Positions 31,581 to 53,843 of a stretch of 64,000 bases of DNA are shown in pieces; the stretch's first letter is position 1; each line of letters opens with the position of its first letter. The stretch is taken from the NCBI GenBank assembly GCA_903841185.1, contig CAIMIV010000012.1, positions 86-64,085 of the forward strand. The letters are read 5' to 3'. The stretch comes from an uncultured bacterium (lineage in GTDB: Bacteria; Patescibacteriota; Minisyncoccia; Moranbacterales; UBA2206). Position numbers and translations under genes: made by a program. The notes under the pieces are model-generated. The model was not told the origin of the DNA. It made no database searches and saw only the letters and a list, made by a program, of their open reading frames with translations.

Positions 31581-32639
31581 TTATTTCTTAAGCCCATATC
31601 TATTATCCTGTTTCACGAATTCTTTTTTATTATTCAAATTTATCATCACCGTGGTTTTTTTTACTTGTCTGGATTTAGCAATTTCTTCCAGCAACTCTTC
31701 TTTTGTCATCGCGTGGCCGCTCTTTTCCAATATTCTCTTGATCACCTCTTTGATTGTTCCCGGCACATAACCCCATTCCCGCAACGCATACGTTCCTCTG
31801 CCGATAAGCACAAAACGATCATCTTTTATCAGCTCGTTATGCACTGTTTGGATATGTGATTTTCTTTTGCCGATTCCAAAGGCATCAATGGATTTGGTAA
31901 TTTCCGTAAAATGCAAGGGCTTCTTTTCTTCCTTCAAAATAAGGTAGATTCTTTCTCTGGTTCCTTTGGGATTTATTTCCATCCAATGAGAAAACCCCCA
32001 TTTGCCAAATTTATTTTCGGATATTTCATTCAGAACATCCAAGAAACTGAGAATCTTATTTTTTGTCATTTCCGGATGAGCCTTGGTTATCTTCTCTACA
32101 ACCTCAGTGTCACTAAGTGGCACTTTGCTGAGAGAAAAAACATCTTTGGCTATCTTGGAAAAATTTTCTACTTCTCCTAGAATATCTCTTGAGACTGCCC
32201 ATGATTTTCTCAATAATTCCTTATTTTTAATTTCCATTATTCTATTCGAACAAAGAGCAAAAAAAGCAATAGCTCTTTCCTCCTTCAGATTTCCTGCAGC
32301 CAATTTTTCCAATAAATACTCTTCACTTATTATACCATCTCTTTTGGATATTTCCAAAATAATTTTTTCTTCCGCCAATTTGAAAACCTCCGCATCAGCC
32401 ATCTTGGAAACCTTTTTGATGGAATCGGAAATTATTTGCCGGACGCGTTCGCGCGTTATCTGATAGTCGCTGCCTATTTTTTCCAGTGTTTCTAGCTCTC
32501 CACTGGCCAAGCCATATCTTTTTTTCAAGATTTCTTGTGAACGCTGCGGCAAATGAGTCAAGATCGCATTCGCCAACCCTAAGAAAGTCTGTTTGACCTG
32601 CTTAGAGATTTTTTTAGTTGTCATGTTTGCTTTTTCCAT
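31581..32639 (-). CDS. Sigma-70 region-4-like HTH domain protein with C-terminal extension
   Basis: 'LPQRSQEILKKRYGL...LEKIGSDYQITRERVRQIISDSIKKV' matches the sigma-70 region 4.2 consensus. Confidence 0.5.
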   Translation of the reverse strand: MEKANMTTKKISKQVKQTFLGLANAILTHLPQRSQEILKKRYGLASGELETLEKIGSDYQITRERVRQIISDSIKKVSKMADAEVFKLAEEKIILEISKRDGIISEEYLLEKLAAGNLKEERAIAFFALCSNRIMEIKNKELLRKSWAVSRDILGEVENFSKIAKDVFSLSKVPLSDTEVVEKITKAHPEMTKNKILSFLDVLNEISENKFGKWGFSHWMEINPKGTRERIYLILKEEKKPLHFTEITKSIDAFGIGKRKSHIQTVHNELIKDDRFVLIGRGTYALREWGYVPGTIKEVIKRILEKSGHAMTKEELLEEIAKSRQVKKTTVMINLNNKKEFVKQDNRYGLKK

Positions 32640-32808: not shown

Positions 32809-32950
32809 ATCTCACTCGCTTCGCTCTCAATAGGGCTTCCCTGCCTACCGGCAGGCAGGCGCCCTCTTGCCCTCCTCATTCTTCGTCGGTCACCCCCAAC
32901 GGGCACCTCCCGGTTCCCGACCCCTCCCCTGTCCTCGTCCTGGCGGGCCA
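32809..32950 (-). other. Anomalously GC-rich (~70%) 140-nt non-coding segment closed by a CCAGGAC/GTCCTGG helix and ending in a copy of the tRNA-Lys 3' end
   Basis: Composition contrasts sharply with the ~40% GC surroundings. Contains a CCTGCC-GGTA-GGCAGG hairpin. Flanked on both sides by near-identical AAATCCC(C)-GNNA-(G)GGGATTTTTT terminator-like hairpins at 32765-32787 and 32954-32974. Confidence 0.4.
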
Positions 32951-32982
32951 AGCAAAAAATCCCTCGCGGGATTTATATAATG

Positions 32983-33055
32983 TGCGCCCACCAGGACTCG
33001 AACCTGGGACCGTTTGCTTAAAAGGCAACTGCTCTACCAACTGAGCTATGAGCGC
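32983..33055 (-). tRNA. tRNA-Lys (anticodon TTT)
   Basis: Cloverleaf folded by hand. Acceptor GCGCTCA/TGGGCGC, D-arm GCTC-AGTTGGTA-GAGC, anticodon loop CTTTTAA, T-arm CCAGG-TTCGAGT-CCTGG. No encoded CCA. Confidence 0.8.
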
Positions 33056-33061: not shown

Positions 33062-33316
33062 TCAATTTTTAATAAAACTTTTTATAAATTCCCTGCCTCT
33101 AAAACTCTTTAATTCCTTCTCTCTTTTCACAACGTCTGCTCTTGTTGCAAATTCTTCTTTATAAATCAGCTCCCAATTTCCATAATTCTTACTCGTAAAC
33201 GAAGTGCTTTTATTTTTAAGCAATCCATTATGCCTTTGTAATCTTACTTCTAAATCAGCAGTTTGTCCAATATATATTTTATTCGATTGATTCCTAATTG
33301 CGTATACGTAAAACAT
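33062..33316 (-). CDS. Free-standing GIY-YIG nuclease domain protein (84 aa)
   Basis: 'FYVYAIRNQSNKIYIGQTADLEVRLQRHN' contains the GIY...YIG core and the conserved Arg and Glu (UPF0213/Slx1-like mini-endonuclease). Confidence 0.75.
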   Translation of the reverse strand: MFYVYAIRNQSNKIYIGQTADLEVRLQRHNGLLKNKSTSFTSKNYGNWELIYKEEFATRADVVKREKELKSFRGREFIKSFIKN

Positions 33317-33325
33317 ATTATTATA

Positions 33326-33386
33326 CCTGGGACCGTTTGCTTAAAAGTCCGCCAGCTGGCGGATCTACCAACTGAGCTATGAGCGC
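33326..33386 (-). pseudogene. Degenerate partial copy of tRNA-Lys (5' two-thirds) with a 16-bp perfect palindrome replacing the D/anticodon junction
   Basis: Matches the intact tRNA-Lys and its leader over 'GCGCTCATAGCTCAGTTGGTAGA' and 'CTTTTAAGCAAACGGTCCCAGG'. TCCGCCAGCTGGCGGA is inserted. The T-loop and 3' acceptor strand are missing, and the GIY-YIG ATG lies 9 nt after CCAGG. Confidence 0.55.
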
Positions 33387-33474
33387 ATTAATTCAATTTT
33401 TTGCAAAAAACAAAATCAGTTATAAGTTAATAACTTTTATTAGTATATCACTTCTACAATTTCCGTCAATGTTT

Positions 33475-34842: not shown

Positions 34843-35092
34843 AATTTTTCAAATAATTTTTGCGGTTTAGCCGTAGCTAAGCCAAGAAAATTTTTGGAAA
34901 ATTTGACCAAAATATGGAAATTGCAGTAGTGAGTTATTATGCAATAGGTCTATTATTTTCAATTATAAGACTATTACCAAAAATAAACAAGCCCGCTTCA
35001 CATTTATTTTTTTGTATTGGATGCCATTCGTCTTTTTTAATTGCTAAATCAATTCATGAATTTCCACCAAACCCATCCCTCTTGATAGCACA

Positions 35093-35151
35093 ACATTCTG
35101 GTATTCTGTTTACCCTGTTGCGTTATGCTATCAGGGCAGAATGTAAGAGTA
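35093..35151. repeat. Intergenic hairpin repeat R1 (long form)
   Basis: ACATTCTGGTATTCTG-[insert TTTACCCTG..GCTATCAGGG]-CAGAATGT. Confidence 0.7.
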
Positions 35152-35202
35152 TCAATTAGGAGTTAGTTTGTTATGATTACTTTTATTTTTTAAGCGAAGT
35201 CT

Positions 35203-35859
35203 TTAATTTTTTCCTTCTTTACATCTCAAACCAAAAACATCAGAGTTGCAAGAAAATGTATGATGTTTATCTCTAGCAGTAGCATCGCCCACTACTTCAA
35301 AAGTTGAGCTATCTGCATTATCTATAATTACATCCTCATAAAAGACATGTCCTTTGTCTTTTGAAAAATTATTTCCCAACACTATGAATGTTTTTGGGTC
35401 GGCATCTTTGATTATTTTTTCATCACTATTTCCGCCATAAGAATTAAAGACAAAATTTTTATCTCTTAGAAAGTCATCAGTTAAGTATTCCAAAGTTGCT
35501 GGGTCTGCCATTGTGTTTCTTTCATATAGACAATCCTGTCCACAAAAAGGGCGAAAGAAAACAACATTCTTATCTTTAACAAAACATGTGTTTACTACTT
35601 CAAATGTTTGAGGATCTAATTTATCCAGAGCCTCTTTAGGTAAACATTTATAGGCATCATAAACATGTGATTGATCTTTTGAAAATTCCTCGTTAATTTG
35701 TATTTTTTCAGATAGTTCTTGATTATTTACCGTATCCATTTTTATTGGCGCAGTATTTGAATTCATTTTTCTATTTTGCAACCAAAAGGATCCACCTAGC
35801 AGTAAGGAAATGACTAAAATGATACCAACTGCGATTTCTATTTTTATGTTTTTATTCAT
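35203..35859 (-). CDS. Secreted DKNYY-repeat protein
   Basis: TM/signal N-terminus and four 'KDKNxVF(F/Y)' repeats. Confidence 0.55.
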   Translation of the reverse strand: MNKNIKIEIAVGIILVISLLLGGSFWLQNRKMNSNTAPIKMDTVNNQELSEKIQINEEFSKDQSHVYDAYKCLPKEALDKLDPQTFEVVNTCFVKDKNVVFFRPFCGQDCLYERNTMADPATLEYLTDDFLRDKNFVFNSYGGNSDEKIIKDADPKTFIVLGNNFSKDKGHVFYEDVIIDNADSSTFEVVGDATARDKHHTFSCNSDVFGLRCKEGKN

Positions 35860-36012
35860 TTTTATTTACTATATTTTTTATACCTTTATTATACCACAAA
35901 AAATTTTGAATTAATAAAATTATTATCACCTTTCCCAGATTAAATTTGCGGAGATAAAAAAACAGGGTGAAGGAAATTCTTCCTCACACCCTGCCCCATC
36001 AAACTGAAAAAC

Positions 36013-36822
36013 TTATAGACTCATAAGTTTCTCTAACGCCTTGTCCCAATCCTTGCCCATATAGTTAATGAACAATACTGGCTGACCATTGATGATTTGC
36101 GGATCACGCAAGTCATCAAAGATGGCCGATACCCAATCTTGATGGTGATTAGCATCGGTGACAATGGCAAACCGCGCACCGCTCTTGGTGGCTGGAAACA
36201 TAAGAAACGGACCATTGTGGACGACTTCACCCAAGGATAGCGTGATGGCTTCCATGGAAAGAGCGGAGCCCTTAGTTTGGACTGGCATCTGACAATCAGA
36301 GAGAACGACATCATATTTATTCGCTCTTATCAATTGCTTACCCTCACCATAGCCACTTGCCAAAGTAAGGAAATGCTTTTCGCCCAACAGCTCCAATGCG
36401 GATAACAAGTTCTCTTGTTTGTCATCCACAACCAGGATGTGCAACGCATCATCCGCGTTCTCCGGAACATATTCCACGCCCATCTCAATAGCCCTGACTT
36501 GGTCAACCTCATCGTTATCAGGAGATGCCCCATTAATTTCTTGGGCAATTTCCGAAACATAAGCGGTTAAATCCGTTATATATTCAAACACGGAAATCCA
36601 CCTGACGTTTGCCGCTGAGAACTTGATCTCTTTAACCGAAAAAACTGCAAACTTTTTTTCCGTTGAATAGACCTCGTGCAGCTTTGATTCATCAAAAACA
36701 ATGATGAGATCAGCTTCGGCAGCAGACTTTGCTTGACCACAAACAGCTGGATCAATAAGAAGCGGCAACACTGCGCCTAAAGCACCCCCAATCGGTCCAC
36801 CAACAGCGATAAAATATTGCAT
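36013..36822 (-). CDS. Response-regulator receiver (REC) domain protein with non-canonical flanking regions
   Basis: Central 'ILVVDDKQENLLSALELL...YDVVLSDCQMP' CheY-like segment containing the phospho-acceptor Asp. Confidence 0.55.
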   Translation of the reverse strand: MQYFIAVGGPIGGALGAVLPLLIDPAVCGQAKSAAEADLIIVFDESKLHEVYSTEKKFAVFSVKEIKFSAANVRWISVFEYITDLTAYVSEIAQEINGASPDNDEVDQVRAIEMGVEYVPENADDALHILVVDDKQENLLSALELLGEKHFLTLASGYGEGKQLIRANKYDVVLSDCQMPVQTKGSALSMEAITLSLGEVVHNGPFLMFPATKSGARFAIVTDANHHQDWVSAIFDDLRDPQIINGQPVLFINYMGKDWDKALEKLMSL

Positions 36823-36998
36823 AACATACTCCCTTTTCTCGTATAGGTTTATTTACAGCCATCTCTGAATAGACTTCCGCCAAATTTTCAAAAAACTACG
36901 ACATTAAATACTAGCAAATTTTTCGTCTTTTGTCAACAACGCTTGACAGAAAGTAAAAAACGCTATAACAAGCGTTTTTTATGATGTATTATATATAT

Positions 36999-37157
36999 TT
37001 AGCCGATGAGCTCATAGTAGACGCCAGTGCCGGTTTGGCGGACCTTGAGTTCTTTTTCCAGTTCGTCCAGATAGTTGGTGACGTTGGAATCAGACACGCC
37101 CAAGAGTTTTTCGATTTCGTTGTTGTATGTTCTTTTAGTCTTGCAATGTTCTGACAT
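36999..37157 (-). CDS. 52-aa mini winged-HTH protein (MSEHCKTKRTYNNEIEKLLGVSDSNVTNYLDELEKELKVRQTGTGVYYELIG)
   Basis: ORF below the 60-aa track cutoff, translated by hand. It has an HTH-turn pattern. The same ~150-bp unit recurs at 44343-44495 and as a fragment at 40078-40140. Confidence 0.4.
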   Translation of the reverse strand: MSEHCKTKRTYNNEIEKLLGVSDSNVTNYLDELEKELKVRQTGTGVYYELIG

Positions 37158-37260
37158 AGTTATTTATTCAAAAAAAATGTACCTGACCCCATTCTTGCTT
37201 TTGCCTATCCCATCACTTAGCAGTTTTACATCTCAAGCAAAATGTTCATCGACATAATTG

Positions 37261-38610
37261 CTAATTACATTTTTCCGAAAAAACACATCCATCTTTTGTA
37301 CATTTTACATTCCCAGTCCCATTGCATTCAGGATAATTTTTACAATATAATGTATATTCCCAATCTTTATTTTTATAAGCAATAATCCATTGCGTATCGT
37401 TTACGTCACCGCACACGCTCATTATTGGCCACTTATCAGTATTGTCGTCACATACAAACCTTGGGGGCGCCCCTAATCCACTATTTTTTATAATTTTACC
37501 ATTTTCATCACATTTTTTTGCAGATGACACCATGGACATAGCAACGCTGGTGATTTGATCAAAATCCAGCTCTCTCTGTGTGGGGATTTTTTGCTCAGTG
37601 TTGCCTGTACTTGTATTATTTGTTTGCATATCTTGTTGCTTAGCTCCTGTCTCTTGATTAAGCTTCAACTCATTTAATATTTTTTCGCATGCAGATTTTT
37701 TTGATGGAGCAGCTATTTTATCACATATTATCCGCTGTGTTTCAATCATGCATTTTTTTGATAATTTTATATCTCCAATCTTCTGACAAACTGTAGCATT
37801 TTGAGTTGCTTTAGCAGTAAAATCATAACAATAACTCTTACCAACTTCATTGGGAATGGCATTGCACTGGTCAGGAGAATGCACATTTTTATAATCAAAA
37901 TCAAACAAATAGCCAATATAACAATCACTTTGCTCATTCACGCTACTCGATTTCTCACAAACACTCATATCTTTATTTCTGATAGATTTTTCAATGAGAC
38001 ATGCGTCCATTTCTTCAATATCAGCAATCCCATCACAATTATTAGCTCTATTAATTGTGATGTTCATTGCAAGAATGTTTGTCGAAACAGATAAAATAAT
38101 TATAATGCCAAATATTTTTAGCGAACTGATTTTTATATATTTTGACATTGCGACACCAATACATAGGCCAAATAATCCCATGAGAGAAGTAATAATCAAG
38201 GGAAAAAACATTCCTGTGAAAAATATAAAATATGGTACTAGGAGTATGGAAATATATGCCATCACAGAAGCGATAACAGAAACTTTCAAAATAGTTTTTA
38301 ATGATGATGGATTAATCAATACTCCTATGAGCAAACCTAATTCAGTAGGAATAAGATATAAGAAAATTTTAAAGAAGAATGTGCTCGCATTATATTCATA
38401 TCCACCAAGCGAAAAAAAAGTGCGAAATGCAAACAAGCTATTTGCAATAAGTAGAGCTGTTAAAATTCCAATGACGATTACTTTTAACTTACTATATTTA
38501 GGTTGACTTTGATCGTTATTTAGCTCTATTGGTGTTGTTTCCATTTTTTTAATATTATTTATAATTGAAATTGTGGGGGTTTTTGGTATTTCAGTCCGAC
38601 ATTTTGACAT
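37261..38610 (-). CDS. Membrane-anchored Cys-rich extracytoplasmic protein (hypothetical)
   Basis: Five N-terminal TM helices, then a ~250-aa domain with more than 20 Cys in CxxC-like spacing. Confidence 0.5.
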   Translation of the reverse strand: MSKCRTEIPKTPTISIINNIKKMETTPIELNNDQSQPKYSKLKVIVIGILTALLIANSLFAFRTFFSLGGYEYNASTFFFKIFLYLIPTELGLLIGVLINPSSLKTILKVSVIASVMAYISILLVPYFIFFTGMFFPLIITSLMGLFGLCIGVAMSKYIKISSLKIFGIIIILSVSTNILAMNITINRANNCDGIADIEEMDACLIEKSIRNKDMSVCEKSSSVNEQSDCYIGYLFDFDYKNVHSPDQCNAIPNEVGKSYCYDFTAKATQNATVCQKIGDIKLSKKCMIETQRIICDKIAAPSKKSACEKILNELKLNQETGAKQQDMQTNNTSTGNTEQKIPTQRELDFDQITSVAMSMVSSAKKCDENGKIIKNSGLGAPPRFVCDDNTDKWPIMSVCGDVNDTQWIIAYKNKDWEYTLYCKNYPECNGTGNVKCTKDGCVFSEKCN

Positions 38611-38666
38611 TCTGGCATTCTATTTACCCTGTAGCGTTATGCTTCTGGGGCAGAATGTCGGAGTGT
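38607..38666. repeat. Intergenic hairpin repeat R2 (long form)
   Basis: Same core with the TTTACCCTGTAGCGTTATGCTTCTGGGG insert. Confidence 0.7.
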
Positions 38667-38668
38667 CA

Positions 38669-38971
38669 TCAGAATGATTTCAAAAATTTCAGGAATCGCC
38701 GGCCATAGGGTGAGAGCGAATGAGCCACTCCCCGGCCTATATGGATTTTATTAATAAGTCCGGCTTGGGTCAATTTCTTGGTGTGCTCAGATAAGGTTTT
38801 GGCGTTGCCGCCCGTTGCCTGGCAAATTCCGTCTAGCGTAATGCCATTCCTCTCAGCCACAAGAAAAAGAATCTCAATCCGACGATGATTGGCCACGCCT
38901 TTCAAATGACGCTCCATCTGTCTGGAGGTCATCGGTCTCGGTTCAATTGTCACCCGCTTTTTCGCCAGCAT
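38669..38971 (-). CDS. ArsR-family winged-helix transcriptional regulator
   Basis: 'LSEHTKKLTQAGLINK' recognition-helix pattern. 100 aa. Confidence 0.65.
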   Translation of the reverse strand: MLAKKRVTIEPRPMTSRQMERHLKGVANHRRIEILFLVAERNGITLDGICQATGGNAKTLSEHTKKLTQAGLINKIHIGRGVAHSLSPYGRRFLKFLKSF

Positions 38972-39053
38972 TTTTTTGATGATAGATTACTAAGATTAAT
39001 CATCTTATCCTCAGTATATCACAACTATCGGCAAACATAATATTTGATAAATA

Positions 39054-39085
39054 ACATTCTGGTATTCTGCAGAATGTCGGAGTGT
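39054..39085. repeat. Intergenic hairpin repeat R3 (short form ACATTCTGGTATTCTGCAGAATGTCGGAGTGT)
   Basis: Nested palindrome: ACATTCTG/CAGAATGT and ATTCTG/CAGAAT, with a PstI site at the core. Confidence 0.75.
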
Positions 39086-39273
39086 TAGTTTGGAGTTGGT
39101 GCTTTTATTCTACCATGTTGCACGCTCTTACAGAAACGACCAGAGCGGCGAATAACCGTGAGAAGATATGCGGATTCGATCGGAAAGAGAGTTTTTCTTC
39201 AACATGCGCGTTAAAATTTCAATTGATTCTTTGTCTTCCATAAATATTTCCTACTAGCATTACCCTACATTTG

Positions 39274-39960
39274 CTACTCCTCTATTTCCAAAATCAATGG
39301 CAGATGATCAGAAACTTCATTATTCACCACTGAAAAGTTTTTCATCCTAATCTCCGGACTCAAAAATATATAATCAGCGTGATATTGTGGATTATTGGGA
39401 TACATTTCCCAAGCCACGCGATTACGAGTGGTTTTCACATCAAACTCCCTGATTAAATCACGGTAGCCATTGTTCGCGAACATCCGTATGCTTTCCGTAT
39501 CAGGAAGCATATTGAAATCTCCGCCGATAATCTTCAAACCTTTCTTATCCTTGAAATATTCAATTAGCCCAATTGACTGCCTAAGGCGCGCTGGCGTGTC
39601 GAGCTTGTCTCCAGGCTGGCAACAACCATGAAAATTACATATCTGAATTATTTTATTGCCAAATGTAATTTTTATATTCACACCAAGGCCGCAATCCGTC
39701 TGCGCATCCAAGACTTCGCCAGTCTCGATCACTTTAATTTTTTTATTCACATAGGTCGCCTGCGTAAAATCATCGCCTGAAATCTCTTTATATGCATAGA
39801 ATTCTTCATAATCAGAAAGGATGCTTCGAGCTAATTGCCTCATTTCCGGATAAACTTCCTGGAAACAAAAAATGTCCGTGTCGAGCGCCTGATTTCGAAT
39901 AAATTCTGTAATGCCATCTTTAATTTCTCCATTCCAAGTGTTTAGAAATACTATTTTCAT
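39274..39960 (-). CDS. Endonuclease/exonuclease/phosphatase (EEP) family protein
   Basis: 'FCFQEV' N-terminal motif and C-terminal 'SDHLPL' catalytic motif. Confidence 0.8.
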   Translation of the reverse strand: MKIVFLNTWNGEIKDGITEFIRNQALDTDIFCFQEVYPEMRQLARSILSDYEEFYAYKEISGDDFTQATYVNKKIKVIETGEVLDAQTDCGLGVNIKITFGNKIIQICNFHGCCQPGDKLDTPARLRQSIGLIEYFKDKKGLKIIGGDFNMLPDTESIRMFANNGYRDLIREFDVKTTRNRVAWEMYPNNPQYHADYIFLSPEIRMKNFSVVNNEVSDHLPLILEIEE

Positions 39961-39999
39961 ATATTTTTTGAAAATTATTAATCTCTTTATTTTAGACTG

Positions 40000-40056
40000 A
40001 CATTCTGGTATTCTGCAGAATGTCGGAGTGTCAGTTAAGGGTTAGTTGGAACGGCC
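40000..40056. repeat. Intergenic hairpin repeat R4 (short form plus 'CAGTTAAGGGTTAGTTGGAACGGCC' tail)
   Basis: The same tail is shared with R8. Confidence 0.75.
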
Positions 40057-40077
40057 AGATTGTGATTTAGCTGATTA

Positions 40078-40140
40078 GTTCGTAGTAGACGCCGGTACCG
40101 GTTTGGCGTACCTTGGTTTCGTTTTCCAGTTCGTCCATAA
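40078..40140 (-). pseudogene. Fragment (C-terminal 24 codons) of the mini winged-HTH gene unit
   Basis: Encodes MDELENETKVRQTGTGVYYELIS*, directly abutting the Fic stop codon. Confidence 0.4.
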
Positions 40141-41199
40141 CTATTTTCCAATAATCCTATATCTCGTGGTTCTCCCCATGCCAATTCGTTGGATTTTTTT
40201 CATATCCAAAAGACGATCCAAGGACTGATTGACGGTCGGTCTAAGTACTCCTGTTTTTTTGACAATTTCACCTGCGGTTACCTCTTCCACCGTTAGCAAG
40301 AAATTCCAAATCAAAAGCTGTTTTGGAGAAAGAATCATTTCCATTCTTTCTGTTGAAAGCAAGTCAATCGCCCGCATAGCCTGCATTTCCAGAATTTTTA
40401 GAAAATATTCCAGCCAGACAATAATCTCCTCTTTTTTTCCGTCAAATGTTTTCTGACTTTTTCGCAATGCCAAATAATATTCCGTTTTATTGTCTTCAAT
40501 TATTTTTTCATGTGAAATATATGGCACGAATCCATAGCCTACTTTTAGTAGTAATAGATTTGTCAGAATTCGCGAAAGCCGTCCATTACCATCTTGAAAA
40601 GGATGGATTTTCAAAAATTCCACCACGAAATTACCCACAATCAAAAGTGGATGATATTTTTTTTCTGCCAAAACTTCCTGTGTCCAAAGCACCAGTTCTT
40701 GTGTTTGCTTCGGGGCCAGATAGGCCCGTGTCGTTTCAAAAACCACACCGATCGGTTTGCCCTCCGCGTCAAACATAGAAACATCATTTTCAGTTTTCTT
40801 ATAATCCCCTCGGTGACGAACATCTTTCTCGGCATATTTCAAAAGTTCATTGTGCAAATGTTTTATGGAACTCTCTGAAAAAGAAATTGTTTTCCACGCG
40901 TTGAATACGTTTTCCAGAAGTTCATAATATCCCTGCACCTCCTGCCTATCTCGATCGCGAAATTTACTGATATTCAGGCCCTTGATAAATCTTTCCACGT
41001 CCGTATCAGACAATCTTGAACCTTCGATTCTAGTGGAAGAGCCTGAGGACGTGACCAATACTGATTTTTTGAGACGGCCTAAAAGCTGAGGTGAAAGGTT
41101 TACTCCCTCAGTCCAACGACCCTTTATTTCATCAATTCTACCAATTTTTGATAGGATTTCAGGTGTTATATTCCCCAGTCTTTGGCTAAAATCAGTCAT
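40141..41199 (-). CDS. Fic/Doc (Fido) family protein with C-terminal winged helix
   Basis: Canonical Fic motif 'HPFQDGNGRLSR'. Confidence 0.85.
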   Translation of the reverse strand: MTDFSQRLGNITPEILSKIGRIDEIKGRWTEGVNLSPQLLGRLKKSVLVTSSGSSTRIEGSRLSDTDVERFIKGLNISKFRDRDRQEVQGYYELLENVFNAWKTISFSESSIKHLHNELLKYAEKDVRHRGDYKKTENDVSMFDAEGKPIGVVFETTRAYLAPKQTQELVLWTQEVLAEKKYHPLLIVGNFVVEFLKIHPFQDGNGRLSRILTNLLLLKVGYGFVPYISHEKIIEDNKTEYYLALRKSQKTFDGKKEEIIVWLEYFLKILEMQAMRAIDLLSTERMEMILSPKQLLIWNFLLTVEEVTAGEIVKKTGVLRPTVNQSLDRLLDMKKIQRIGMGRTTRYRIIGK

Positions 41200-41261
41200 T
41201 TTTTATCTTATATTATAACTACATAAGATTATATTAGATTATATTAGATTTGTCAATTTTC

Positions 41262-41335
41262 ACTGTTGCGTTATGCTATCAGAATTTACCCAATAGCGCT
41301 ATGCTTCTGGGGCAGGATGTCAGAATGTTAATTAA
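41262..41335. repeat. Intergenic hairpin repeat R5 (rearranged long form, inner module duplicated)
   Basis: CTGTTGCGTTATGCTATCAGAAT...AGCGCTATGCTTCTGGGGCAGGATGTCAGAATGT. Confidence 0.6.
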
Positions 41336-41496
41336 GAGTTAATTAGCTCATTTTAACCTACTAGTGTAAACTGATACATCATTTTTGTTTATGCTAGTCA
41401 AATAGCATTAACTTCTGAAAATATTCTTGATGATATTATATCACTATAACAAAACCCTGTCCACTTTGACCCTGTGGATAACTTAAACAATACAGA

Positions 41497-41898
41497 TTAT
41501 TTCCAATTTAAATAAGTTATTGTCAGTTGCAAGATTGTGGCGAAAGAAACCCACAACAGATATGGGGTTTGAATATAGGTAATCCAGCGTGCATGTGGGA
41601 AGATTCCAATCATCCCCCAGATAAGTGTGCCCAGCACTAACAAAATATCAATAGCCGCTAGATAATTATTTTTGAGCCCAAATTGAATGGGTGTGAAAGA
41701 GAAATTGAAAATTAAATTCAAAATAAAAGGCAGTGCAACCAAGAATGGAATTTGCTTCTTGATTAACATCCAAAAAACCCTGCCAAAAGAAATAGCAATC
41801 AAGACATATAAAAATGTCCACACCGGACCAAAAACCCAGCTCGGTGGCGACCAAGTTGGTTTAAAAAGTTGCGCATACCAATTAGTTGTATTATTCAT
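41497..41898 (-). CDS. tspO: TspO/MBR family tryptophan-rich membrane protein
   Basis: 'WYAQLFKPTWSPPSWVFGPVWTFLY' is a classic TspO N-terminal signature, with five TM helices. Confidence 0.8.
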   Translation of the reverse strand: MNNTTNWYAQLFKPTWSPPSWVFGPVWTFLYVLIAISFGRVFWMLIKKQIPFLVALPFILNLIFNFSFTPIQFGLKNNYLAAIDILLVLGTLIWGMIGIFPHARWITYIQTPYLLWVSFATILQLTITYLNWK

Positions 41899-41967
41899 AG
41901 TTTTTATATTAAAAACTTATTTTTTAATTACTGAATTTTTATTATATCACAACTATTTCTAGAAATA

Positions 41968-41999
41968 ACATTCTGGCTTTCTGCAGAATGTCGGAGTAT
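41968..41999. repeat. Intergenic hairpin repeat R6 (short form)
   Basis: ACATTCTGGCTTTCTGCAGAATGTCGGAGTAT. Confidence 0.7.
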
Positions 42000-42099
42000 C
42001 GTTTTGGATGGACATTCTGGTGCAAGCGATGATAGTGAGGATGCCAAATTATAAATAATCATCAATTTGGGATAACTTAAAAAAACTCTATTATCTTAT

Positions 42100-42657
42100 T
42101 TATGCATGACAATCTAATATTAAACTACAGCTAGTATGGGCATGCTCCTGTAATATTTTTTTAACCTGCTCTTTCCATGCAATAAATTCTTTATAATCAG
42201 GGCTTTCTGCATCTATATACATAAACGCTTGCGAGGCTCTTATGAATTGGTTATCGGGAGTAATGATAACATCCGGAAATCTATCATAAGAATCAATTAC
42301 CTTTAAAAAATCATCTGTTAATAGAAAATCAAAAACTTCATAGGCATCATAAAAATTATGTTTTTCCAAATCTTTTTCAATTTTGGCAACACCTTTTTCC
42401 ATTAATTCTTGCTTAAAAACAGACGATATCTGATAAATGCCGTTTTCATCAACGCCTGTTTCTGTTCCATAAATCTCAGAAATAGCAAAGGCCAGTTCTT
42501 GATTGCTGGGATTTGGAAATTCCTCCCCCATTAATGCACTGGTCAGTGTTATCATATCATCCGACACATACGCTTTTGATTGCTTTGAAAAATCCGCTCT
42601 TATAGCAGTGACCGCATCAGGAGCAATTCCTATGAGAGCAATGGTTGTAAATTTCAT
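42100..42657 (-). CDS. Hypothetical cytoplasmic protein
   Basis: 185-aa ORF. No recognised domain. Confidence 0.45.
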   Translation of the reverse strand: MKFTTIALIGIAPDAVTAIRADFSKQSKAYVSDDMITLTSALMGEEFPNPSNQELAFAISEIYGTETGVDENGIYQISSVFKQELMEKGVAKIEKDLEKHNFYDAYEVFDFLLTDDFLKVIDSYDRFPDVIITPDNQFIRASQAFMYIDAESPDYKEFIAWKEQVKKILQEHAHTSCSLILDCHA

Positions 42658-42702
42658 ATGATTTTATTGTTAAATTTATGTAAGTAACTGATTACGTAAT
42701 TA

Positions 42703-42734
42703 ACATTCTGGTATTCTGCAGAATGTCGGAGTGT
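42703..42734. repeat. Intergenic hairpin repeat R7 (short form)
   Basis: Exact core. The extended 5' flank 'TTATGTAAG.AAC.GA.TG' is shared with R10. Confidence 0.75.
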
Positions 42735-42810
42735 CAATGGAGAGTTGATTGGAGTGACTAGGGATATGCCGTGCCATTCGTCGACTGCGTATAAAAAATC
42801 AATTGCCGCC

Positions 42811-43470
42811 TTACTTGTTCAAGTTATTCCAGTGTTCTTCGTTGAAATCAGCCAAAGAATCAAGTACAAGATCCGCTATAGCAATCTTGGGGCTCTGTTT
42901 TATCGATTCATCCGGAACACAGACACATTTCATCCTGGCAGCCTTGGCTGACAACAGACCGTTAAAAGAATCTTCCCATGCCAAACATCTTTCAGGCGCA
43001 ATATCTAAAACTTTTGCAGTTGTAATATAAACGCCTGGGTGAGGTTTTCCATATTCTTCCATCTCCGCAGAATAAAGTTCATCAAAATATTTTTCGATAC
43101 CAAATTTTTGGACGACTGTTTTTATTAGAATCAATTGAGAAGAAGACGCAATTGCCATTTTGACATTCTTACCCTTCATAAATTCGAGTATTTCATAAAC
43201 ACCCTCTCTTGGCGTTCCTTTTTCAATCACCAATGAAATTACACCGGACATTATATCTTTAACTACTATGTCTCTATCTTGTATGTTGCCTGGAAATTTA
43301 TAATTCCAATGATCAACGACTTGATCAACCCTTAATCCCATTGTTTCCAAGCACATTTTATTATCCAATACTATGCCAACCTTCTTAAATGACCTTATTT
43401 CCGCTTCTTGCCATAGTGGTTCTGAATCAATTAATAAACCATCCATGTCAAATATTACCGCTTCAATCAT
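42811..43470 (-). CDS. HAD-superfamily hydrolase (beta-phosphoglucomutase / sugar-phosphatase subfamily)
   Basis: Motif I 'VIFDMDGLLIDSE'. Overall spacing of HAD motifs II-IV. 219 aa. Confidence 0.8.
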   Translation of the reverse strand: MIEAVIFDMDGLLIDSEPLWQEAEIRSFKKVGIVLDNKMCLETMGLRVDQVVDHWNYKFPGNIQDRDIVVKDIMSGVISLVIEKGTPREGVYEILEFMKGKNVKMAIASSSQLILIKTVVQKFGIEKYFDELYSAEMEEYGKPHPGVYITTAKVLDIAPERCLAWEDSFNGLLSAKAARMKCVCVPDESIKQSPKIAIADLVLDSLADFNEEHWNNLNK

Positions 43471-43532
43471 AAAATTATATTAAATTATTTACTTATATAT
43501 TTTACCATGTAATTTTTGTTAGTTCTAATAAA

Positions 43533-43592
43533 ACATTCTGGTATTCTGTTTACCCTGTAGCGCTATGCTTCTGGGGCAGAATGTCGGAGTGT
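43533..43592. repeat. Intergenic hairpin repeat R8 (long form + tail)
   Basis: Same core with the 28-nt insert. The tail is identical to R4. Confidence 0.75.
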
Positions 43593-43739
43593 CAGTTAAG
43601 GGTTAGTTGGAACGGCCAAGGCGTCCTGCCTGCCGGTAGGCAGGGATTTAGCCGATTCGTCGATTTTCAATTTCCAGTGAATGTAACAGGTATAGGATAT
43701 GAAAGCGCAGCGTCCCCTCGCGTATGACACAGGCAGGAA

Positions 43740-44285
43740 TTAGTATCTAAATTCTTTAATCCATTCATCAAACATTTTCGTTTTATTATTACCAAATTTT
43801 AATAATCCATTTCTAATCTTATTAAGACTTTTTTCTTTTGATAAAAATTCTTCATTTTTAGAAAAGAATTTGTCAGCAAAGCAGATAATTTGCTCCTCTA
43901 TTGAAATTGGAAGCATATCTCTTTTTGGTATTGGTAATTTTTGTCCTTCAATATCTTTTATTGAAATTCCTACGCCTACATGCCTTTCGCAAACTAATGC
44001 GTGTTTTGGAAAACCTTCTTTCTCCAATAGCTCTCTACCTAAATATCCATGACAGATATAGGGGTTTTCACCAAAACATTCAATTTCAGGAGCATTAGTT
44101 AAGAATATTCCAATATCATGTATCATTGAAGCTTCTTCTATGAATTTCAAATCAGGATTAAGATGAGGAACTTTTTTTGCAATTTCAATAGCTTTTTTAG
44201 TAACTGCGTTGCTGTGCTCTACTAAAAGTTGATAAGATTTAGAATCTATTTGGTAATACTTTTGAATTATTTTTAATGGATCCAT
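43740..44285 (-). CDS. HD-domain phosphohydrolase
   Basis: 'HSNAV...MIHDIG' H...HD motif. 181 aa. Confidence 0.65.
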   Translation of the reverse strand: MDPLKIIQKYYQIDSKSYQLLVEHSNAVTKKAIEIAKKVPHLNPDLKFIEEASMIHDIGIFLTNAPEIECFGENPYICHGYLGRELLEKEGFPKHALVCERHVGVGISIKDIEGQKLPIPKRDMLPISIEEQIICFADKFFSKNEEFLSKEKSLNKIRNGLLKFGNNKTKMFDEWIKEFRY

Positions 44286-44342
44286 ATTAAGAAAATATTT
44301 GATAAAATATATAAATTTAATGTCTGCCGAGTAATATGTCGT

Positions 44343-44495
44343 AAATTATCTAGTCGTTGAGTTCATAGTAGACGCCGGTGCCGGTTTGTCCGACTTGGCG
44401 GACTTTGAGTTCTTTTTCCAGTTCGTCCAGATAGTTGGTGACGCTGGAATCAGACACGCCCAAGAGTTTTTCGATTTCGTTGTTGGTGGCTTTGC
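44343..44495 (-). pseudogene. Second copy of the mini winged-HTH unit, with no in-frame ATG (degraded or alternative start)
   Basis: About 90% identical to 36999-37157 (…NNEIEKLLGVSDSSVTNYLDELEKELKVRQ..TGTGVYYELND*). A TAA stop lies upstream in frame. Confidence 0.4.
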
Positions 44496-44537
44496 CGTTA
44501 TATTATCCTAGTTATATCAAGAATATTTCTGGAAATG

Positions 44538-44569
44538 ACATTCTGGTATTCTGCAGAATGTCGGAGTGT
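44538..44569. repeat. Intergenic hairpin repeat R9 (short form)
   Basis: Exact core. Confidence 0.75.
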
Positions 44570-44791
44570 TAGATGGGTATGTTTACTTTTATTTTTTCTT
44601 AGATTTTTTAATATTTTTTTCGAGTGACTTGAAACCCTTTTTTATAACTACGGCGATTATAATTCCAGCTAGGGTAAAGATCCAAATGCTAGGAGTGAAG
44701 AATCCTCCGAAAAATGCTTTAAAAATTACTACTGGGTCTCCATACATGGGTTTATTTTAAGATTTATGTAAGCAACCGACTGTTGTAATTA

Positions 44792-44822
44792 ACATTCTTG
44801 AATTCTGCAGAATGTCGGAGTG
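44792..44822. repeat. Intergenic hairpin repeat R10 (short form, 2 mismatches)
   Basis: ACATTCTTGAATTCTGCAGAATGTCGGAGTGT. Confidence 0.7.
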
Positions 44823-44873
44823 TTGTTTTGAGTGAGGATTTTAGTGCAAGTAATTGATTTCATTAATTTTTTA

Positions 44874-45491
44874 TTAGGATAAGTTTATTGTTATATTATT
44901 TCTATATCTGTTCTCATCAAACTCATTTATATCTGATGGGAACAATAAGCGCGAGTAACCATTTTTATTGTCCAATAGGGAGAAAAAGAAAATCATCTTA
45001 AAACAATGCCCTTCCTTATTTAGAAGATACTGCAAATGTTGAATTACTAACTCACTAAGGTTAAATTTAAAGTCAGTTGCATAAAGTAGCAAAGATAGTG
45101 GCAGTTTTTTATTCCCGTATTTTACTGATTTACTTTTTATTTTTTTAAGGATACTTCTGCTAAACTCAATATCATTACATTGGTTATTTACCAAGGAATA
45201 ACCATTCTTGTCTAAAATTGCAATTTCCATGAGATCAATGTCATTTTTCCCAAATATTGTTTCAACAGAAAAATCAAAATCATTTTGTTCATTTTGAACA
45301 AATGATATGAATTTAAACGGGGCGTCTTGATTATTTGTATTTTCAACGAATCTCTCCATAATGAAAACTTCGATCTCCTCTTTTGAATCTGGAAAAATAG
45401 TCTTTTTAAAAGAAATATCCTTTGGTGAAATTCTCATAAAACCACTTGTGCCTGTTGGTTTTTTCATAAATTTATTTCTCATACACATCAT
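44874..45491 (-). CDS. Hypothetical protein
   Basis: 205-aa ORF. No recognised domain. Lies at the distal end of the R-M-linked gene string. Confidence 0.45.
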   Translation of the reverse strand: MMCMRNKFMKKPTGTSGFMRISPKDISFKKTIFPDSKEEIEVFIMERFVENTNNQDAPFKFISFVQNEQNDFDFSVETIFGKNDIDLMEIAILDKNGYSLVNNQCNDIEFSRSILKKIKSKSVKYGNKKLPLSLLLYATDFKFNLSELVIQHLQYLLNKEGHCFKMIFFFSLLDNKNGYSRLLFPSDINEFDENRYRNNITINLS

Positions 45492-45578: not shown

Positions 45579-46406
45579 CTAAATAGCTACAACTTCTTTC
45601 TGAAAGTTGTTATGTTTTTTCAACTTCTCCCTCATTCCTTTATAAAAAGAAGTAAACATTAGTACAGCTTCAGAAAGTGACCTATGGTTATATTCTTGCT
45701 TACTAAAAATACTATTATTCCTAAGTCCCAAGGTAATAACAAGCGGTTCTTCTTTTCCAATTCTCAATGATGGAGACTCTCCATTTATCAATGAATGTTT
45801 ATATGCATTTGATGCTTCATTTAAAAAAGAAAGAAAAGCCACATCATTATCATCGTATTCATCTTTAAAGGGATGTCCTTCTGCCAGTTTAAATAATCTT
45901 CCGATCGAATCAATTTCAATTTTGTCCGGATATACTCCGTTATTTTCAAATTCGGCTAAAATCCAATGAATTGAAATTAATCGATCTGTGATACGACGCA
46001 TCCAATAAATTATTTCTTCAACTGTTTTTTGATGCCCAAGAACCCCATTATAATACATGCCAGTCGCGTAAAGTTTATAGCATTCCACGATACGACTATT
46101 TAAATATTCAATATCCTTTATGATATTTAGAAATATGAGCTGTAAATTACCGAAGGTCATATCTGAATCTAAGTTTATAGAATGCATAATATGATCAGCT
46201 CTAAATATATAAGTTCCATATAGTGGATTCGCTACATCGAAACTTAGGGGAATTTTAAGTATAGGAAATCCAAAAAATTGAAAATCAGACTTTGTAATGA
46301 GCGTATTGATGCCACAGTCCGCACAATAACCCCCTATTAGTTTTTTTCCACACTTGCCGCAATATGTAATATCCATAAAATTAAGATTATAAATCCTATG
46401 ACTCAA
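45579..46406 (-). CDS. Hypothetical protein with N-terminal CxxC...CxxC zinc ribbon, translationally coupled to hsdS
   Basis: 'YCGKCGKKLIGGYCADCG'. Its start overlaps the hsdS stop by 11 nt. Confidence 0.5.
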   Translation of the reverse strand: MSHRIYNLNFMDITYCGKCGKKLIGGYCADCGINTLITKSDFQFFGFPILKIPLSFDVANPLYGTYIFRADHIMHSINLDSDMTFGNLQLIFLNIIKDIEYLNSRIVECYKLYATGMYYNGVLGHQKTVEEIIYWMRRITDRLISIHWILAEFENNGVYPDKIEIDSIGRLFKLAEGHPFKDEYDDNDVAFLSFLNEASNAYKHSLINGESPSLRIGKEEPLVITLGLRNNSIFSKQEYNHRSLSEAVLMFTSFYKGMREKLKKHNNFQKEVVAI

Positions 46407-47706
46407 ACGCCTCCCTCAGCACCGACTGCATCAGACTGTCGGCGGTTTTTTTGTTTTGGGAAATTTCCGCTTCCAGCTTGTCCAGTTCTTGCATCAAGGT
46501 CTCAACTTTTTCCACAATAACTTTTTGTTCGGAGAGTGGAGGTAAGGGAAATAATAATAAATTTATGATACCTAGATTTATATTTTTTTGAGCTGTGGCT
46601 GGAGCAAAATCAGATATATTCTTTTTACTGACCTCAAAAAAATATTGAACATACTTAGAAATTGATAAGTCCAATAAAGAATCGAAACCTACTACACTAT
46701 CTGGAAAACACGCTTTCATTTTTAAAAAACCAGTCTCCGCAATATTGGCCGCAATGGTTATACATAGTGTATTTTCCTCCCACAATCTACTTTGTTTTAA
46801 ACCTATCTCATTATAATATTTATTGCAACTTTTGATTTGAAAATTATTACTTTTGGACCTAGCAACATCTCCCGTTTGCACAAATGGAATGTTTCCCTTT
46901 TTAAACAACCTCTCATCATTTCTCGGTCTATGTTTCGACTTTCCTCTTTCAAATAATCCCACATCGCCCAATCGACACCATTCCCACTCTTTTGGCAATT
47001 CAAATGGAATTTCTTTCTCTGAAATTTCTGGCAAATGTTTTTCTTTTTTTATCTTTTTCTCCGCAATTAGTTTTTCTTTTTCGGCTTTTATTTTTTTCAA
47101 AAGTTCGCTCGCCGGTTCAACATTGGGATTTTTTTTGCGCCAATCAACCGTCAGTTTTCCCTCAATCGAATCTTGCAGAATTGCTTGACGAAGCTTTTGA
47201 ATGATTATCTTTTGCCCACTCAATTCAACTTCAAGAGATTTTTTTTGTCTAGACAATATTTCTTCAAGTTTTATTATTTCCAATTGCTTGTCATATGCAG
47301 GAATTATAATTTCAACAGTTTTTATGCTTGATATAGACAATGAAACATTGGCCGCTCCCCTCATCAATGATACAAGCAGTTCATCCTTAAAATATGACAA
47401 ATAAATATGCAAATATTTAGGATGTAAATATTTTTCATCCTTTGGAATAATTGCCGCCAAAATGCTACCCAGGGCAAATTTACCTTCTTGATAATGCACA
47501 CGCTTCATACTTGCATGTCCATGTCCTGTCGAAGAAACCAGCTGAACAATTACAGCATTGCAATCAAATTGGTATTCCTCATGCAATGCCCGTTCTGTCG
47601 CCAGTGTGACCATTGGATATTTTCCTGGAACCGCTTTCATTATTCCAGTTGATCCTTTCACAACATCACAAACATCGCCTATTTTTATTTTTTTCACTTC
47701 TTTCAT
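46396..47706 (-). CDS. hsdS: Type I restriction-modification specificity subunit HsdS
   Basis: Two target-recognition-domain halves separated by conserved coiled-coil spacers (…LPPLSEQKVIVEKVETLMQELDKLE…). 4-nt overlap with hsdM. Confidence 0.85.
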   Translation of the reverse strand: MKEVKKIKIGDVCDVVKGSTGIMKAVPGKYPMVTLATERALHEEYQFDCNAVIVQLVSSTGHGHASMKRVHYQEGKFALGSILAAIIPKDEKYLHPKYLHIYLSYFKDELLVSLMRGAANVSLSISSIKTVEIIIPAYDKQLEIIKLEEILSRQKKSLEVELSGQKIIIQKLRQAILQDSIEGKLTVDWRKKNPNVEPASELLKKIKAEKEKLIAEKKIKKEKHLPEISEKEIPFELPKEWEWCRLGDVGLFERGKSKHRPRNDERLFKKGNIPFVQTGDVARSKSNNFQIKSCNKYYNEIGLKQSRLWEENTLCITIAANIAETGFLKMKACFPDSVVGFDSLLDLSISKYVQYFFEVSKKNISDFAPATAQKNINLGIINLLLFPLPPLSEQKVIVEKVETLMQELDKLEAEISQNKKTADSLMQSVLREAFES

Positions 47707-49133
47707 AATTCTTTCTTCAATTCAGTTAAAATCTTCTTGCTCTCAGAAAAAGAAGTCTCCAACATTTCAAGAAGTTCTTTGGTTGAATATTCTGCCTCCT
47801 CATCCTTTTTCGTTGGATTCTTGATGTCCAAATCCCAACCTCGTTTTTCTATTTCTTTGATAGAAACTTTCCATGCCACTTCACTTTCTGTGCGTTTTTT
47901 CCACCACGCTTTGATTGGGTCAAATTCAGAAAGTTTAATATGTTTGGTTTTGGAATATGATTTTTGTCCTTCCGGCAAACGGTGCTCATAAAACCAAACT
48001 TCTTTAGTCTTTGAGCCTTTTTTGAAAAATAATAAATTTGTGGCTACTGTTGCATATGGTGCAAAGACAGAATTTGGCAGACGGACAATTGTGTGCAAAT
48101 TACATTCTTCCAGCCATTTTTGACGAATGCGCGATTTCAATCCATCCCCCGTCAAAGATCCATCCGGCAAAACAATTCCCGCCTGTCCGTTCGGTTTCAA
48201 AAGTTTCATGAACAAAACCAAAAACAAATCAGCCGTTTCCTTAGTGCGAAGACCTGATGGAAAATTGGCCAAAATGCCGTCTTGCACCGATCCGCCGAAA
48301 GGAGGATTGGCCACAATTGCATCCACTCTTTCCGCAGGAGAAATGTCCTTAATGGGTCGCGCCAATGAATCACCGCGACGGATGTTGGTCGGCGCTTTGA
48401 TGCCATGCAAAAGCATATTAGTGATGCAAAGCATATGCGGTAACGGTTTCAGCTCATTTCCTGTGACAGTTTTCTTGATGAGCGCCTCATCTTCAGCTGT
48501 GTGCACTTCATTTTTTCGCAAATGCTCGATGACGGAAGTCAAGAATCCCCCCGTTCCGCAAGCCGGATCAAGAACTGTCTGGCCCAGTTTCGGATCAACC
48601 ATCTCAACGATGAATTGCGTCAATGCCCTTGGGGTGTAGAATTCTCCGGCATTGCCTGCGCTTTGCAAGCTCAAAAGAAGCGTTTCATAGATGTCTCCAA
48701 ATTGATCCCGATCGGCCTTTCGGTTGAAGTTCATCTCATTGAGCTTGTTGATGACTTTGCGAATCAAAGTGCCGTTTTTCATGTAGTTGAAGCTATCCTC
48801 AAAAACCGATTTCACGATATATCCTTCCGGATTTTTTTTGACATCAGCCTCAAGAGTTTTGAGCGCTGGAAAAAGATCATCATTGATGAGTTTCAATAGT
48901 GCGTCCCCTGTGATTCCCTCCGGATTTTTCGCCCAATTCCTCCAGCGAAGTTTTTCCTCAATAGGAGATTTATATTTAGGACTCAAAAGTTCAGTCTCGC
49001 TTTCCTGTTCATCAAAAATCTTCAAAAAAAGCATCCAGCCAATTTGTGACAATCGCTGAGCATCACCATCCACTCCATGATCCTCCCGCATTATATTCTG
49101 TATTGATTTTACTATTCCTGTTATGTTTGACAT
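47703..49133 (-). CDS. hsdM: Type I R-M N6-adenine DNA methyltransferase HsdM
   Basis: N-terminal HsdM_N region, AdoMet motif 'VLDPACGTGGFL', and catalytic 'NPPFG'. Confidence 0.9.
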   Translation of the reverse strand: MSNITGIVKSIQNIMREDHGVDGDAQRLSQIGWMLFLKIFDEQESETELLSPKYKSPIEEKLRWRNWAKNPEGITGDALLKLINDDLFPALKTLEADVKKNPEGYIVKSVFEDSFNYMKNGTLIRKVINKLNEMNFNRKADRDQFGDIYETLLLSLQSAGNAGEFYTPRALTQFIVEMVDPKLGQTVLDPACGTGGFLTSVIEHLRKNEVHTAEDEALIKKTVTGNELKPLPHMLCITNMLLHGIKAPTNIRRGDSLARPIKDISPAERVDAIVANPPFGGSVQDGILANFPSGLRTKETADLFLVLFMKLLKPNGQAGIVLPDGSLTGDGLKSRIRQKWLEECNLHTIVRLPNSVFAPYATVATNLLFFKKGSKTKEVWFYEHRLPEGQKSYSKTKHIKLSEFDPIKAWWKKRTESEVAWKVSIKEIEKRGWDLDIKNPTKKDEEAEYSTKELLEMLETSFSESKKILTELKKEL

Positions 49134-49175
49134 ATAATTTCTTTAAATTAAGCTAATTTATTTTTTTTAAACTTG

Positions 49176-50572: not shown

Positions 50573-50590
50573 ACTATTCTTATGAAATAA

Positions 50591-53771: not shown

Positions 53772-53819
53772 AAGATTTTATTTTTTAATCCTATCCATGA
53801 TCCAAGTTGCGAACCTCTT

Positions 53820-53841: not shown

Positions 53842-53843
53842 GA

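Follow-up and report, generated by a model that had tools for sequence, protein, structure and literature searches.

The 64-kb stretch of DNA analysed here (the window) comes from a candidate phyla radiation (CPR) bacterium of the Ca. Moranbacteria/Parcubacteria and carries ten copies of a palindromic repeat with a 32-nt core, placed between accessory genes that all lie on the minus strand. The copies share one orientation, fall within positions 35093-44823 and bound mostly single-gene units. In the window and in related Parcubacteria, the repeat is strictly associated with a gene encoding an ArsR-family protein, and its half-site changes with the recognition helix of that protein. It is probable that the repeat is an operator of this ArsR-family regulator that has been copied, together with a promoter-bearing leader, before each accessory gene, and that the resulting modules double as homology for the gain and loss of genes.

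A four-box repeat beside an ArsR-like gene

Ten repeat copies between co-oriented minus-strand genes had been described in the first-pass annotation of the window, and this description was borne out by pattern searches. With up to 3 mismatches allowed, the right arm GCAGAATGTCGGAGTGT has 10 matches on the + strand versus 0.10 expected in the 64-kb window, and the full 32-mer has 6 versus 0.00 expected, with 0 copies outside the interval given above. On the gene strand, the core is made up of four 8-mer boxes, ACACTCCG, ACATTCTG, CAGAATAC and CAGAATGT, arranged as two direct and then two inverted copies of a ACATTCTG-like box. The generic motif, TTCTGnnnTTCTGCAGAAnnnCAGAA, comprises 26 conserved bp and is written with its variable centre as TTCTGnnnTTCTG(N0-60)CAGAAnnnCAGAA. 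Six minus-strand copies have the short form of 32 nt, namely R3 (39054-39085), R4 (40000-40031), R6 (41968-41999), R7 (42703-42734), R9 (44538-44569) and R10 (44792-44823). R3, R4, R7 and R9 represent the canonical sequence and are 100% identical over 32 nt; box 3 reads CAGAAAGC in R6 and CAGAATTC in R10, the latter with AAGAATGT as box 4. The long form of 60 nt, with a 28-nt insert precisely between CTG and CAG, is found on the same strand in R1 (35093-35152), the most diverged and last copy of the array, R2 (38607-38666) and R8 (43533-43592). In the degenerate R5 (41257-41328, minus strand), two insert modules stand in tandem and the left arm (box 3/4) is lost, a double-insert form that also occurs in the related locus L002. 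Both the three long copies and the rearranged R5 had been recognised in the earlier annotation and are confirmed here; every insert is located at the core centre. GTT follows the core in 6 copies and GTC in 3, the arm of R5 being lost, and no target-site duplication was seen at the flanks of the window copies. A PstI-site explanation was rejected, as CTGCAG occurs outside the cores at 7 sites versus ~8.8 expected for the whole window, showing no avoidance.

The same annotation regarded the repeat as a nested perfect palindrome. This holds for the 12-mer ATTCTGCAGAAT and for the ACATTCTG/CAGAATGT arms, which are perfect over 8 bp and offset by 8 nt, but not for the full 16+16 pairing, in which four G-T pairs are required on the + strand and four A-C mismatches arise on the gene strand. 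As single-stranded DNA, the short core forms no more than a weak stem of 8 bp around an 8-nt loop (-5.9 to -6.2 kcal/mol), and on the gene strand this structure is more stable than expected from shuffled sequence (z = -4.05). In the long forms, the + strand has a slight advantage in folding, with -10.8 versus -7.7 kcal/mol on the gene strand for R8. The folds contain no bulged or extrahelical bases, and the four boxes abut without a spacer. Among 27 cores from 10 genomes, the sequence is kept in all four boxes and compensatory changes are scarce; 75% of the cells of the full hairpin are paired, and the box 2/box 4 stem is 93% paired but almost invariant. Since dyad symmetry is expected for a hairpin and an operator alike, this pairing test does not separate the two, whereas the conservation of all four boxes, including those that pair poorly, fits recognition by a protein.

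The gene to which the repeat is tied (38669-38971, minus strand) encodes a 100-aa ArsR/SmtB-like winged-helix protein that matches Pfam HTH_5 above the cut-off (3.1e-07), an NCBIfam ArsR/SmtB subfamily below the cut-off (1.1e-07) and the ArsR structure 6j0e in PDB (7e-04). Its 2561 homologues, where named, are proteins of Moranbacteria or Parcubacteria. R3 stands upstream of this gene and R2 begins 2 nt past its stop, the latter at the position of a downstream copy that is conserved in every related genome. For comparison, the DNA around 12 ArsR-like homologues was retrieved; most related loci were picked by anchoring on the ArsR gene, and L001 and L003/L004 by anchoring on the repeat. The motif flanks the ArsR homologue in all eight further lineages with an SEHT(K/R)K recognition helix. 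The short motif was counted 16 times in the 103 kb of seven independent ArsR-anchored loci, versus 0.005 expected from shuffles, and 14 of these 16 copies flank the homologue. On the upstream side, 36-132 nt separate the end of the copy from the ATG; on the downstream side, the copy begins at -9 to +14 nt relative to the stop, and these two are usually the sole copies in 10-20 kb. The motif was found at the same two positions in L022, which was retrieved later, and the ArsR gene also adjoins the repeat in the repeat-anchored loci L001 and L003/L004, where no ArsR bias exists.

The motif further changes together with the recognition helix. TTCTG/CAGAA boxes accompany the helix KT(I/L)SEHTKKL in the window, L003/L004, L005, L008, L009, L017, L018 and L022, ACATCCTT/AAGGATGT boxes accompany KTIGEHTRRLY in L019 and L020, and ACATCACT/AGTGATGT boxes accompany RTIGEHTRRLH in L021. 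The homologues of L019-L021 are distant, yet the layout of four 8-bp boxes and both flanking positions are kept there despite the changed half-site. The relation also held in a test of its predictions, as L022 (SEHTKK) has boxes of the TTCTG type and L021 (GEHTRR) a different half-site. Being tied to the ArsR-family gene of the array and changing with its recognition helix across Parcubacteria, the motif points to a transcription-factor operator; in comparative genomics, a gene-flanking motif that tracks the helix is the classical mark of a transcription factor paired with its operator. With 26 bp in an imperfect inverted arrangement, the repeat also resembles the operators of 12-2-12 type that are known for ArsR/SmtB repressors. 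Known members such as SmtB and CzrA are likewise winged-helix proteins of ~100 aa with ArsR/HTH_5 signatures, and their inverted repeats of this kind lie at or just upstream of the promoter of their own and adjacent target genes. The multiple half-sites suggest that two dimers would bind here. Unlike in these systems, the regulator gene has a second operator-like copy in a fixed position at its stop codon, and in the window lineage the module recurs tenfold before unrelated accessory genes.

Two peculiarities of the flanking copies were observed besides. The last codons of the ArsR-like gene (…ACA/TCA TTC TGA; window 38669-38680, L018 6292-6300, L008, L017) themselves form a motif box, and in three genomes the downstream copy overlaps the ArsR stop codon by 9 nt. 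In L022 (2940-2990), the upstream copy has three extra tandem CAGAATGT boxes directly abutting TATAAT, so that the number of boxes is variable.

Exact-pattern scans of genome and metagenome collections gave matches in CPR contigs only (L001-L004, from Ca. Moraniibacteriota, a Parcubacteria-group metagenome-assembled genome and a groundwater metagenome), and a scan of viral contigs for the right arm gave 0 matches. At gathering thresholds, Rfam found one 16S rRNA and one tRNA in the whole window and no match at the repeats. Nothing relevant was found in the literature on integrons or attC sites in CPR/Patescibacteria, on Moranbacteria repeats, on CPR ArsR regulons or on Parcubacteria cassette arrays.

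Leaders, tails and variable gene units

In the array, the cores keep a short distance from the gene that follows. From core to next start codon, 39-82 nt are found in 8 of the 10 copies, with 39 nt between R4 and the gene for an endonuclease/exonuclease/phosphatase (EEP), 44 nt between R10 and the ATG of a 52-aa open reading frame (ORF), 45 nt between R7 and the ATG of a 185-aa ORF, and 57, 62, 69 and 82 nt from R5, R8, R6 and R3 to the Fic, HAD, TspO and ArsR-like genes, respectively. The distance from the preceding stop to the core ranges from 2 to 188 nt and is 50 nt both for R1 after the DKNYY gene and for R10 after a 205-aa ORF.

Sequences adjoining the cores belong to families that are common to unrelated genes. 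Leader A, which has an extended -10 element, follows R3 (with TGATATACT), R6 (with TGATATAAT as its extended -10), R9 (with CATTTCCAGAAATATTCTTGATATAAC) and L003b, and leader B follows R7, R10, L002c, L011dn and L014dn. Before the core in gene sense, tail A is found at R4 (40032-40056, preceded by a Fic 3' end), R8, L011 and L013, and tail B at R10, L002c and L003b. A tail shared by some copies had already been noted in the first-pass annotation, and CAGTTAAGGGTTAGTTGGAACGGCC does adjoin both R4 and R8. Tails and leaders are found in differing combinations. Extended -10 elements or a perfect TTGACA-17-TATAAT follow R3, R6, R8 and R5, the perfect match (41256-41228) standing directly after R5, and in L009 and L022 the last box abuts TATAAT.

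Close relatives (95% ArsR identity) differ by whole repeat-bounded units. The gene order is TspO-R5-Fic-R4-EEP-R3-ArsR in the window, TspO-core-158aa(reverse)-core-ArsR in L011/L012 and TspO-core-ArsR in L013. In alignment A3, L013 corresponds to the Fic 3' end and tail A of the window (the R4 side) up to the core and then to the ArsR leader of the window (the R3 side). As the match switches at the core, the EEP unit, missing from L013, is a clean core-to-core difference. The insertion in L011 relative to L013 is flanked by a ~140-nt direct repeat consisting of a winged helix-turn-helix (wHTH) gene remnant, tail A and the core, and its 158-aa ORF has no Pfam match. The ArsR units of the window and L003 are homologous (78% over 434 nt), and this homology likewise stops at the cores. 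Core-bounded gain or loss of gene units is thus real for the EEP and the 158-aa unit, and the presence/absence variation among relatives that was to be expected of a cassette-like array is found precisely at the cores. The cargo varies among genomes and includes a methyltransferase, an APH-like kinase, Macro, NUDIX, Ham1 and acetyltransferase genes and others.

Which box 3 variant a core has (TAC, AGC or TTC) is independent of its tail and leader. This, together with the gene remnants at unit borders, suggests variable crossover points, as in homologous recombination, over one fixed cleavage site. Being identical over 32 bp, or over 100-140 bp with tails and leaders, the modules could provide portable homology for the shuffling of units, and gene units are probably gained and lost by homologous recombination between them.

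In the proposed explanation, the repeat would be a composite operator of the 100-aa ArsR/SmtB-family protein of the array, a putative repressor. Most Parcubacteria have two copies, of which the upstream one (R3 in the window) would serve autoregulation and the one at the stop codon would front the next gene, often tspO, the most frequent neighbour of the ArsR homologue in other Parcubacteria. In the window lineage, the operator and its short promoter-bearing leader would have been copied before successive accessory genes, yielding ten copies and co-oriented single-gene transcription units. The units of the array are presumably repressed jointly and released jointly by the signal of the regulator. 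With the modules as portable homology, gene units may have been inserted, deleted and swapped, which would give the locus its cassette-like look without an integrase.

Competing explanations for the array

Several observations weigh against the operator interpretation. The 100-aa protein matches ArsR models weakly and the classical metal-binding Cys motif is absent, which sets it apart from the known repressors. The ArsR association in L005-L022 came from anchoring on ArsR, and the co-variation of helix and half-site, seen in three motif classes and a small sample, could partly be co-divergence with distance. Promoter-like sites number 51 versus 41 expected, -10-like hexamers being common by chance in A+T-rich DNA. 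Four copies are 100% identical and hence more uniform than typical operators, suggesting recent copying or gene conversion and not selection for binding alone. Furthermore, inserts of 28 nt, 2x28 nt or a G+C hairpin are found at the dyad centre of 4 of the 10 window copies and of L002b and L003a/L004, a feature that ArsR/SmtB operators do not share. Such an insert would split an operator and would be tolerated better by a structure-dependent site, so that a reading of the cores as recombination sites retains a low probability.

A cassette-like or integron-like layout was also what the first-pass annotation had seen, with either a sedentary integron or miniature inverted-repeat transposable elements (MITEs) as its possible origin. 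In the former case, the cores would be recombination sites of an integron-like cassette system with a recombinase encoded elsewhere in the genome, the four boxes corresponding to R''-L''-variable loop-L'-R', possibly as a folded single strand, and the ArsR gene being a common cassette or its product an accessory DNA-binding factor. The order of two direct and two inverted boxes with variable-length inserts at the centre only mimics attC geometry, the strand antisense to the genes is the one that folds better, and the gene units of relatives differ precisely at cores. As in sedentary integrons and clusters of attC sites lacking integron-integrases (CALINs), mostly single, co-oriented accessory genes lie between homogeneous imperfect palindromes with a centre of variable length, and the array adjoins a defence island; high copy homogeneity is a trait of sedentary chromosomal integrons. 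An array of accessory genes that varies by units stands as described, but the integron mechanism is not supported. As had been stated for the window, no intI is visible: no Phage_integrase or other recombinase family match was found in the screened ORFs of the 64-kb window, the main ORFs of L001 or the gene tables of 10 further related loci. The 205-aa and a 275-aa ORF upstream of the array, checked as candidates for a novel recombinase or defence protein, had no Pfam, PADLOC or NCBIfam match. The attC sites measure ~55-141 nt and consist of R''(RYYYAAC)-L''...L'-R'(GTTRRRY) with a spacer and extrahelical bases; the repeats are indeed shorter, as the earlier annotation had remarked, with 32 nt (60 nt with an insert), they show neither feature in the folds, and GTT/AAC is not conserved. 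A cassette platform does not predict that most genomes have just two copies hugging an ArsR gene, or that the half-site tracks the ArsR recognition helix. Finally, spacing is tight to the next start codon and not to the preceding stop, and the indels are bordered by gene remnants and 140-nt repeats rather than by precise sites. Taken together, an integron-like system with a distant recombinase is unlikely. A related proposal, slightly less likely again, treats the four-box cores as sites of a Parcubacteria-specific cassette system that is integrase-less or served by a trans-encoded recombinase, with the ArsR-like protein as site-recognition or architectural factor and the centre inserts comparable to the variable loops of attC. 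If true, a gene-cassette platform would have evolved a second time and independently, in ultra-small CPR genomes.

The MITE origin, in which a selfish palindromic element of MITE or repetitive extragenic palindromic (REP) type multiplied locally between genes and its link to ArsR is historical, would account for the perfectly inverted ACATTCTG/CAGAATGT arms and for near-identical, purely intergenic copies in short and long forms. REP elements, bacterial interspersed mosaic elements and MITEs are likewise short intergenic imperfect palindromes in many near-identical copies. The copies studied here, however, are clustered in one orientation, ten within 10 kb and none in the other 54 kb, and lack target-site duplications. 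No Y1-transposase match was found in any screened ORF of the window, and no transposase or REP-associated tyrosine transposase (RAYT) gene was found. Retention of the motif at orthologous ArsR-flanking positions across order-level divergence is also unlike selfish insertions, making this origin distinctly improbable. The pdif (XerC/D) modules of Acinetobacter plasmids are comparable in that short palindromes bound small accessory modules with no dedicated integrase nearby. They differ in having 28 bp (11-6-11) and alternating orientation, whereas the present repeats are built as 8+8+8+8, are all direct and in some copies carry 28-nt inserts at the place of the spacer.

A position behind every gene, and at the very stop codon of ArsR, would also suit an RNA hairpin acting on the preceding gene's transcript by termination, attenuation or stabilisation; the gene-strand stem is better than in shuffled sequence, as given above, and a weak T-rich stretch follows some copies. 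An intrinsic terminator was rejected: a terminator scan called none of the ten cores, and the stems are A+T-rich and weak (-5.9 to -6.2 kcal/mol as DNA), not G+C-rich. Boxes 1 and 3 are conserved though unpaired in the fold, and in L005 a copy lies in the divergent intergenic region upstream of ArsR, with relA on the other strand and no transcript to terminate. A role as RNA hairpin is considered the least probable of these alternatives, a shade below the selfish element.

If the repeat is an operator of the ArsR-like protein, so widely conserved a regulator with an unusually clear operator of four 8-bp boxes would offer a directly testable putative regulon, centred on tspO and housecleaning or defence-type enzymes, in CPR bacteria, which have tiny genomes, few regulators and no genetics. 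It is proposed that, in the window lineage, newly acquired genes can be brought into a common regulon by a portable operator-promoter module, which would also serve as the homology through which units are gained and lost, giving an integron-like array without an integron. For sequence scans this calls for caution, as palindromes arrayed between accessory genes need not be attC sites.

Genes of the array and its surroundings

From the DKNYY gene (35203-35859) to the 205-aa ORF (44874-45491), every ORF that matches a family is encoded on the minus strand, and the families named at first (DKNYY, REC-like, ArsR, EEP, Fic, TspO, HAD and HD) were all confirmed. The 205-aa ORF itself has no family match; it lies just upstream of R10 and marks the boundary to a type I restriction-modification/Thoeris island. 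Beyond R10, the following genes of the minus strand form single-gene units: a hydrophobic 52-aa ORF (44589-44747), the HD gene (43740-44285), which follows R9, leader A and a wHTH gene remnant, the HAD gene (42811-43470) and the 185-aa ORF (42100-42657). The TspO/MBR gene (41497-41898, minus strand) was assigned by a family match. It is followed by a SoFic-like gene that combines Fic and wHTH domains (40141-41199, minus strand) and matches the SoFic defence model of PADLOC at 1.8e-38, and by the EEP gene (39274-39960, minus strand) in the unit between R4 and R3.

The Fic-wHTH ORF stops at 40141, and its conserved C-terminal wHTH end (closing with VRQTGTGVYYELIS and a stop) runs on in another frame to ~40070, which suggests a frameshift in this gene. 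Remnants of a 3' end of this gene type, joined to tail A, occur again at 36997-37157 and 44348-44511 (96% over 96 nt).

The earlier statement that nearly every intergenic space carries a repeat holds only in part, since there is none among the genes of a core-free block (35203-38610, minus strand) that is bracketed by the long-form copies R2 and R1. This block contains a 449-aa ORF (37261-38610) with several predicted membrane helices, a Cys-rich C-terminal half and no family match, the wHTH remnant ORF (36999-37157), a REC-like ORF of 269 aa (36013-36822) and the DKNYY gene, all on the minus strand.

Restriction or defence islands border the arrays of the window, L001, L002, L008 and L014. 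In the window, a type I restriction-modification operon with Thoeris (46396-52957) occupies the high-coordinate side of the array; the operon is interrupted by thsA (49176-50075) and thsB (50072-50572), which separate hsdM (47703-49133) from hsdR (50591-52957). RadC and two RhuM genes lie beyond this operon (53100-54782, 61190-62248).

On the low-coordinate side, tRNA-Lys(UUU) at 32982-33055 has a partial 3' direct duplicate at 33325-33408, ~330 nt off (100% over 23 nt, 93% over 45 nt), and the two copies bracket a small GIY-YIG ORF (33062-33316). A GIY-YIG ORF also occurs ~8 kb from the ArsR-linked genes in L008. The tRNA-Lys duplicate looks like the scar left by an insertion into the tRNA gene, at the border of the variable region on its low-coordinate side. 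At a distance of a few hundred bases from this tRNA, towards lower coordinates, lie the genes for a protein with sigma-70 region 4 and HARE-HTH (31581-32639, minus strand) and, near it, for a VirD4/TrwB-like coupling ATPase with a C-terminal zinc finger (28308-30227, minus strand). A complete 16S rRNA gene stands alone at 20204-21771 on the minus strand, with no 23S or 5S match in the window, indicating that the rRNA operon is unlinked.

A G+C-rich perfect hairpin, CCCTGCCT(A/G)CCGG(C/T)AGGCAGG, was observed in the window at 43625-43645 and 32839-32860, in L003 at 3160-3185 and in L011 at 970-990. It sits after wHTH-type stop codons and near the tRNA, as well as inside the core centre in L003/L004, and may be a small mobile hairpin or a terminator module.

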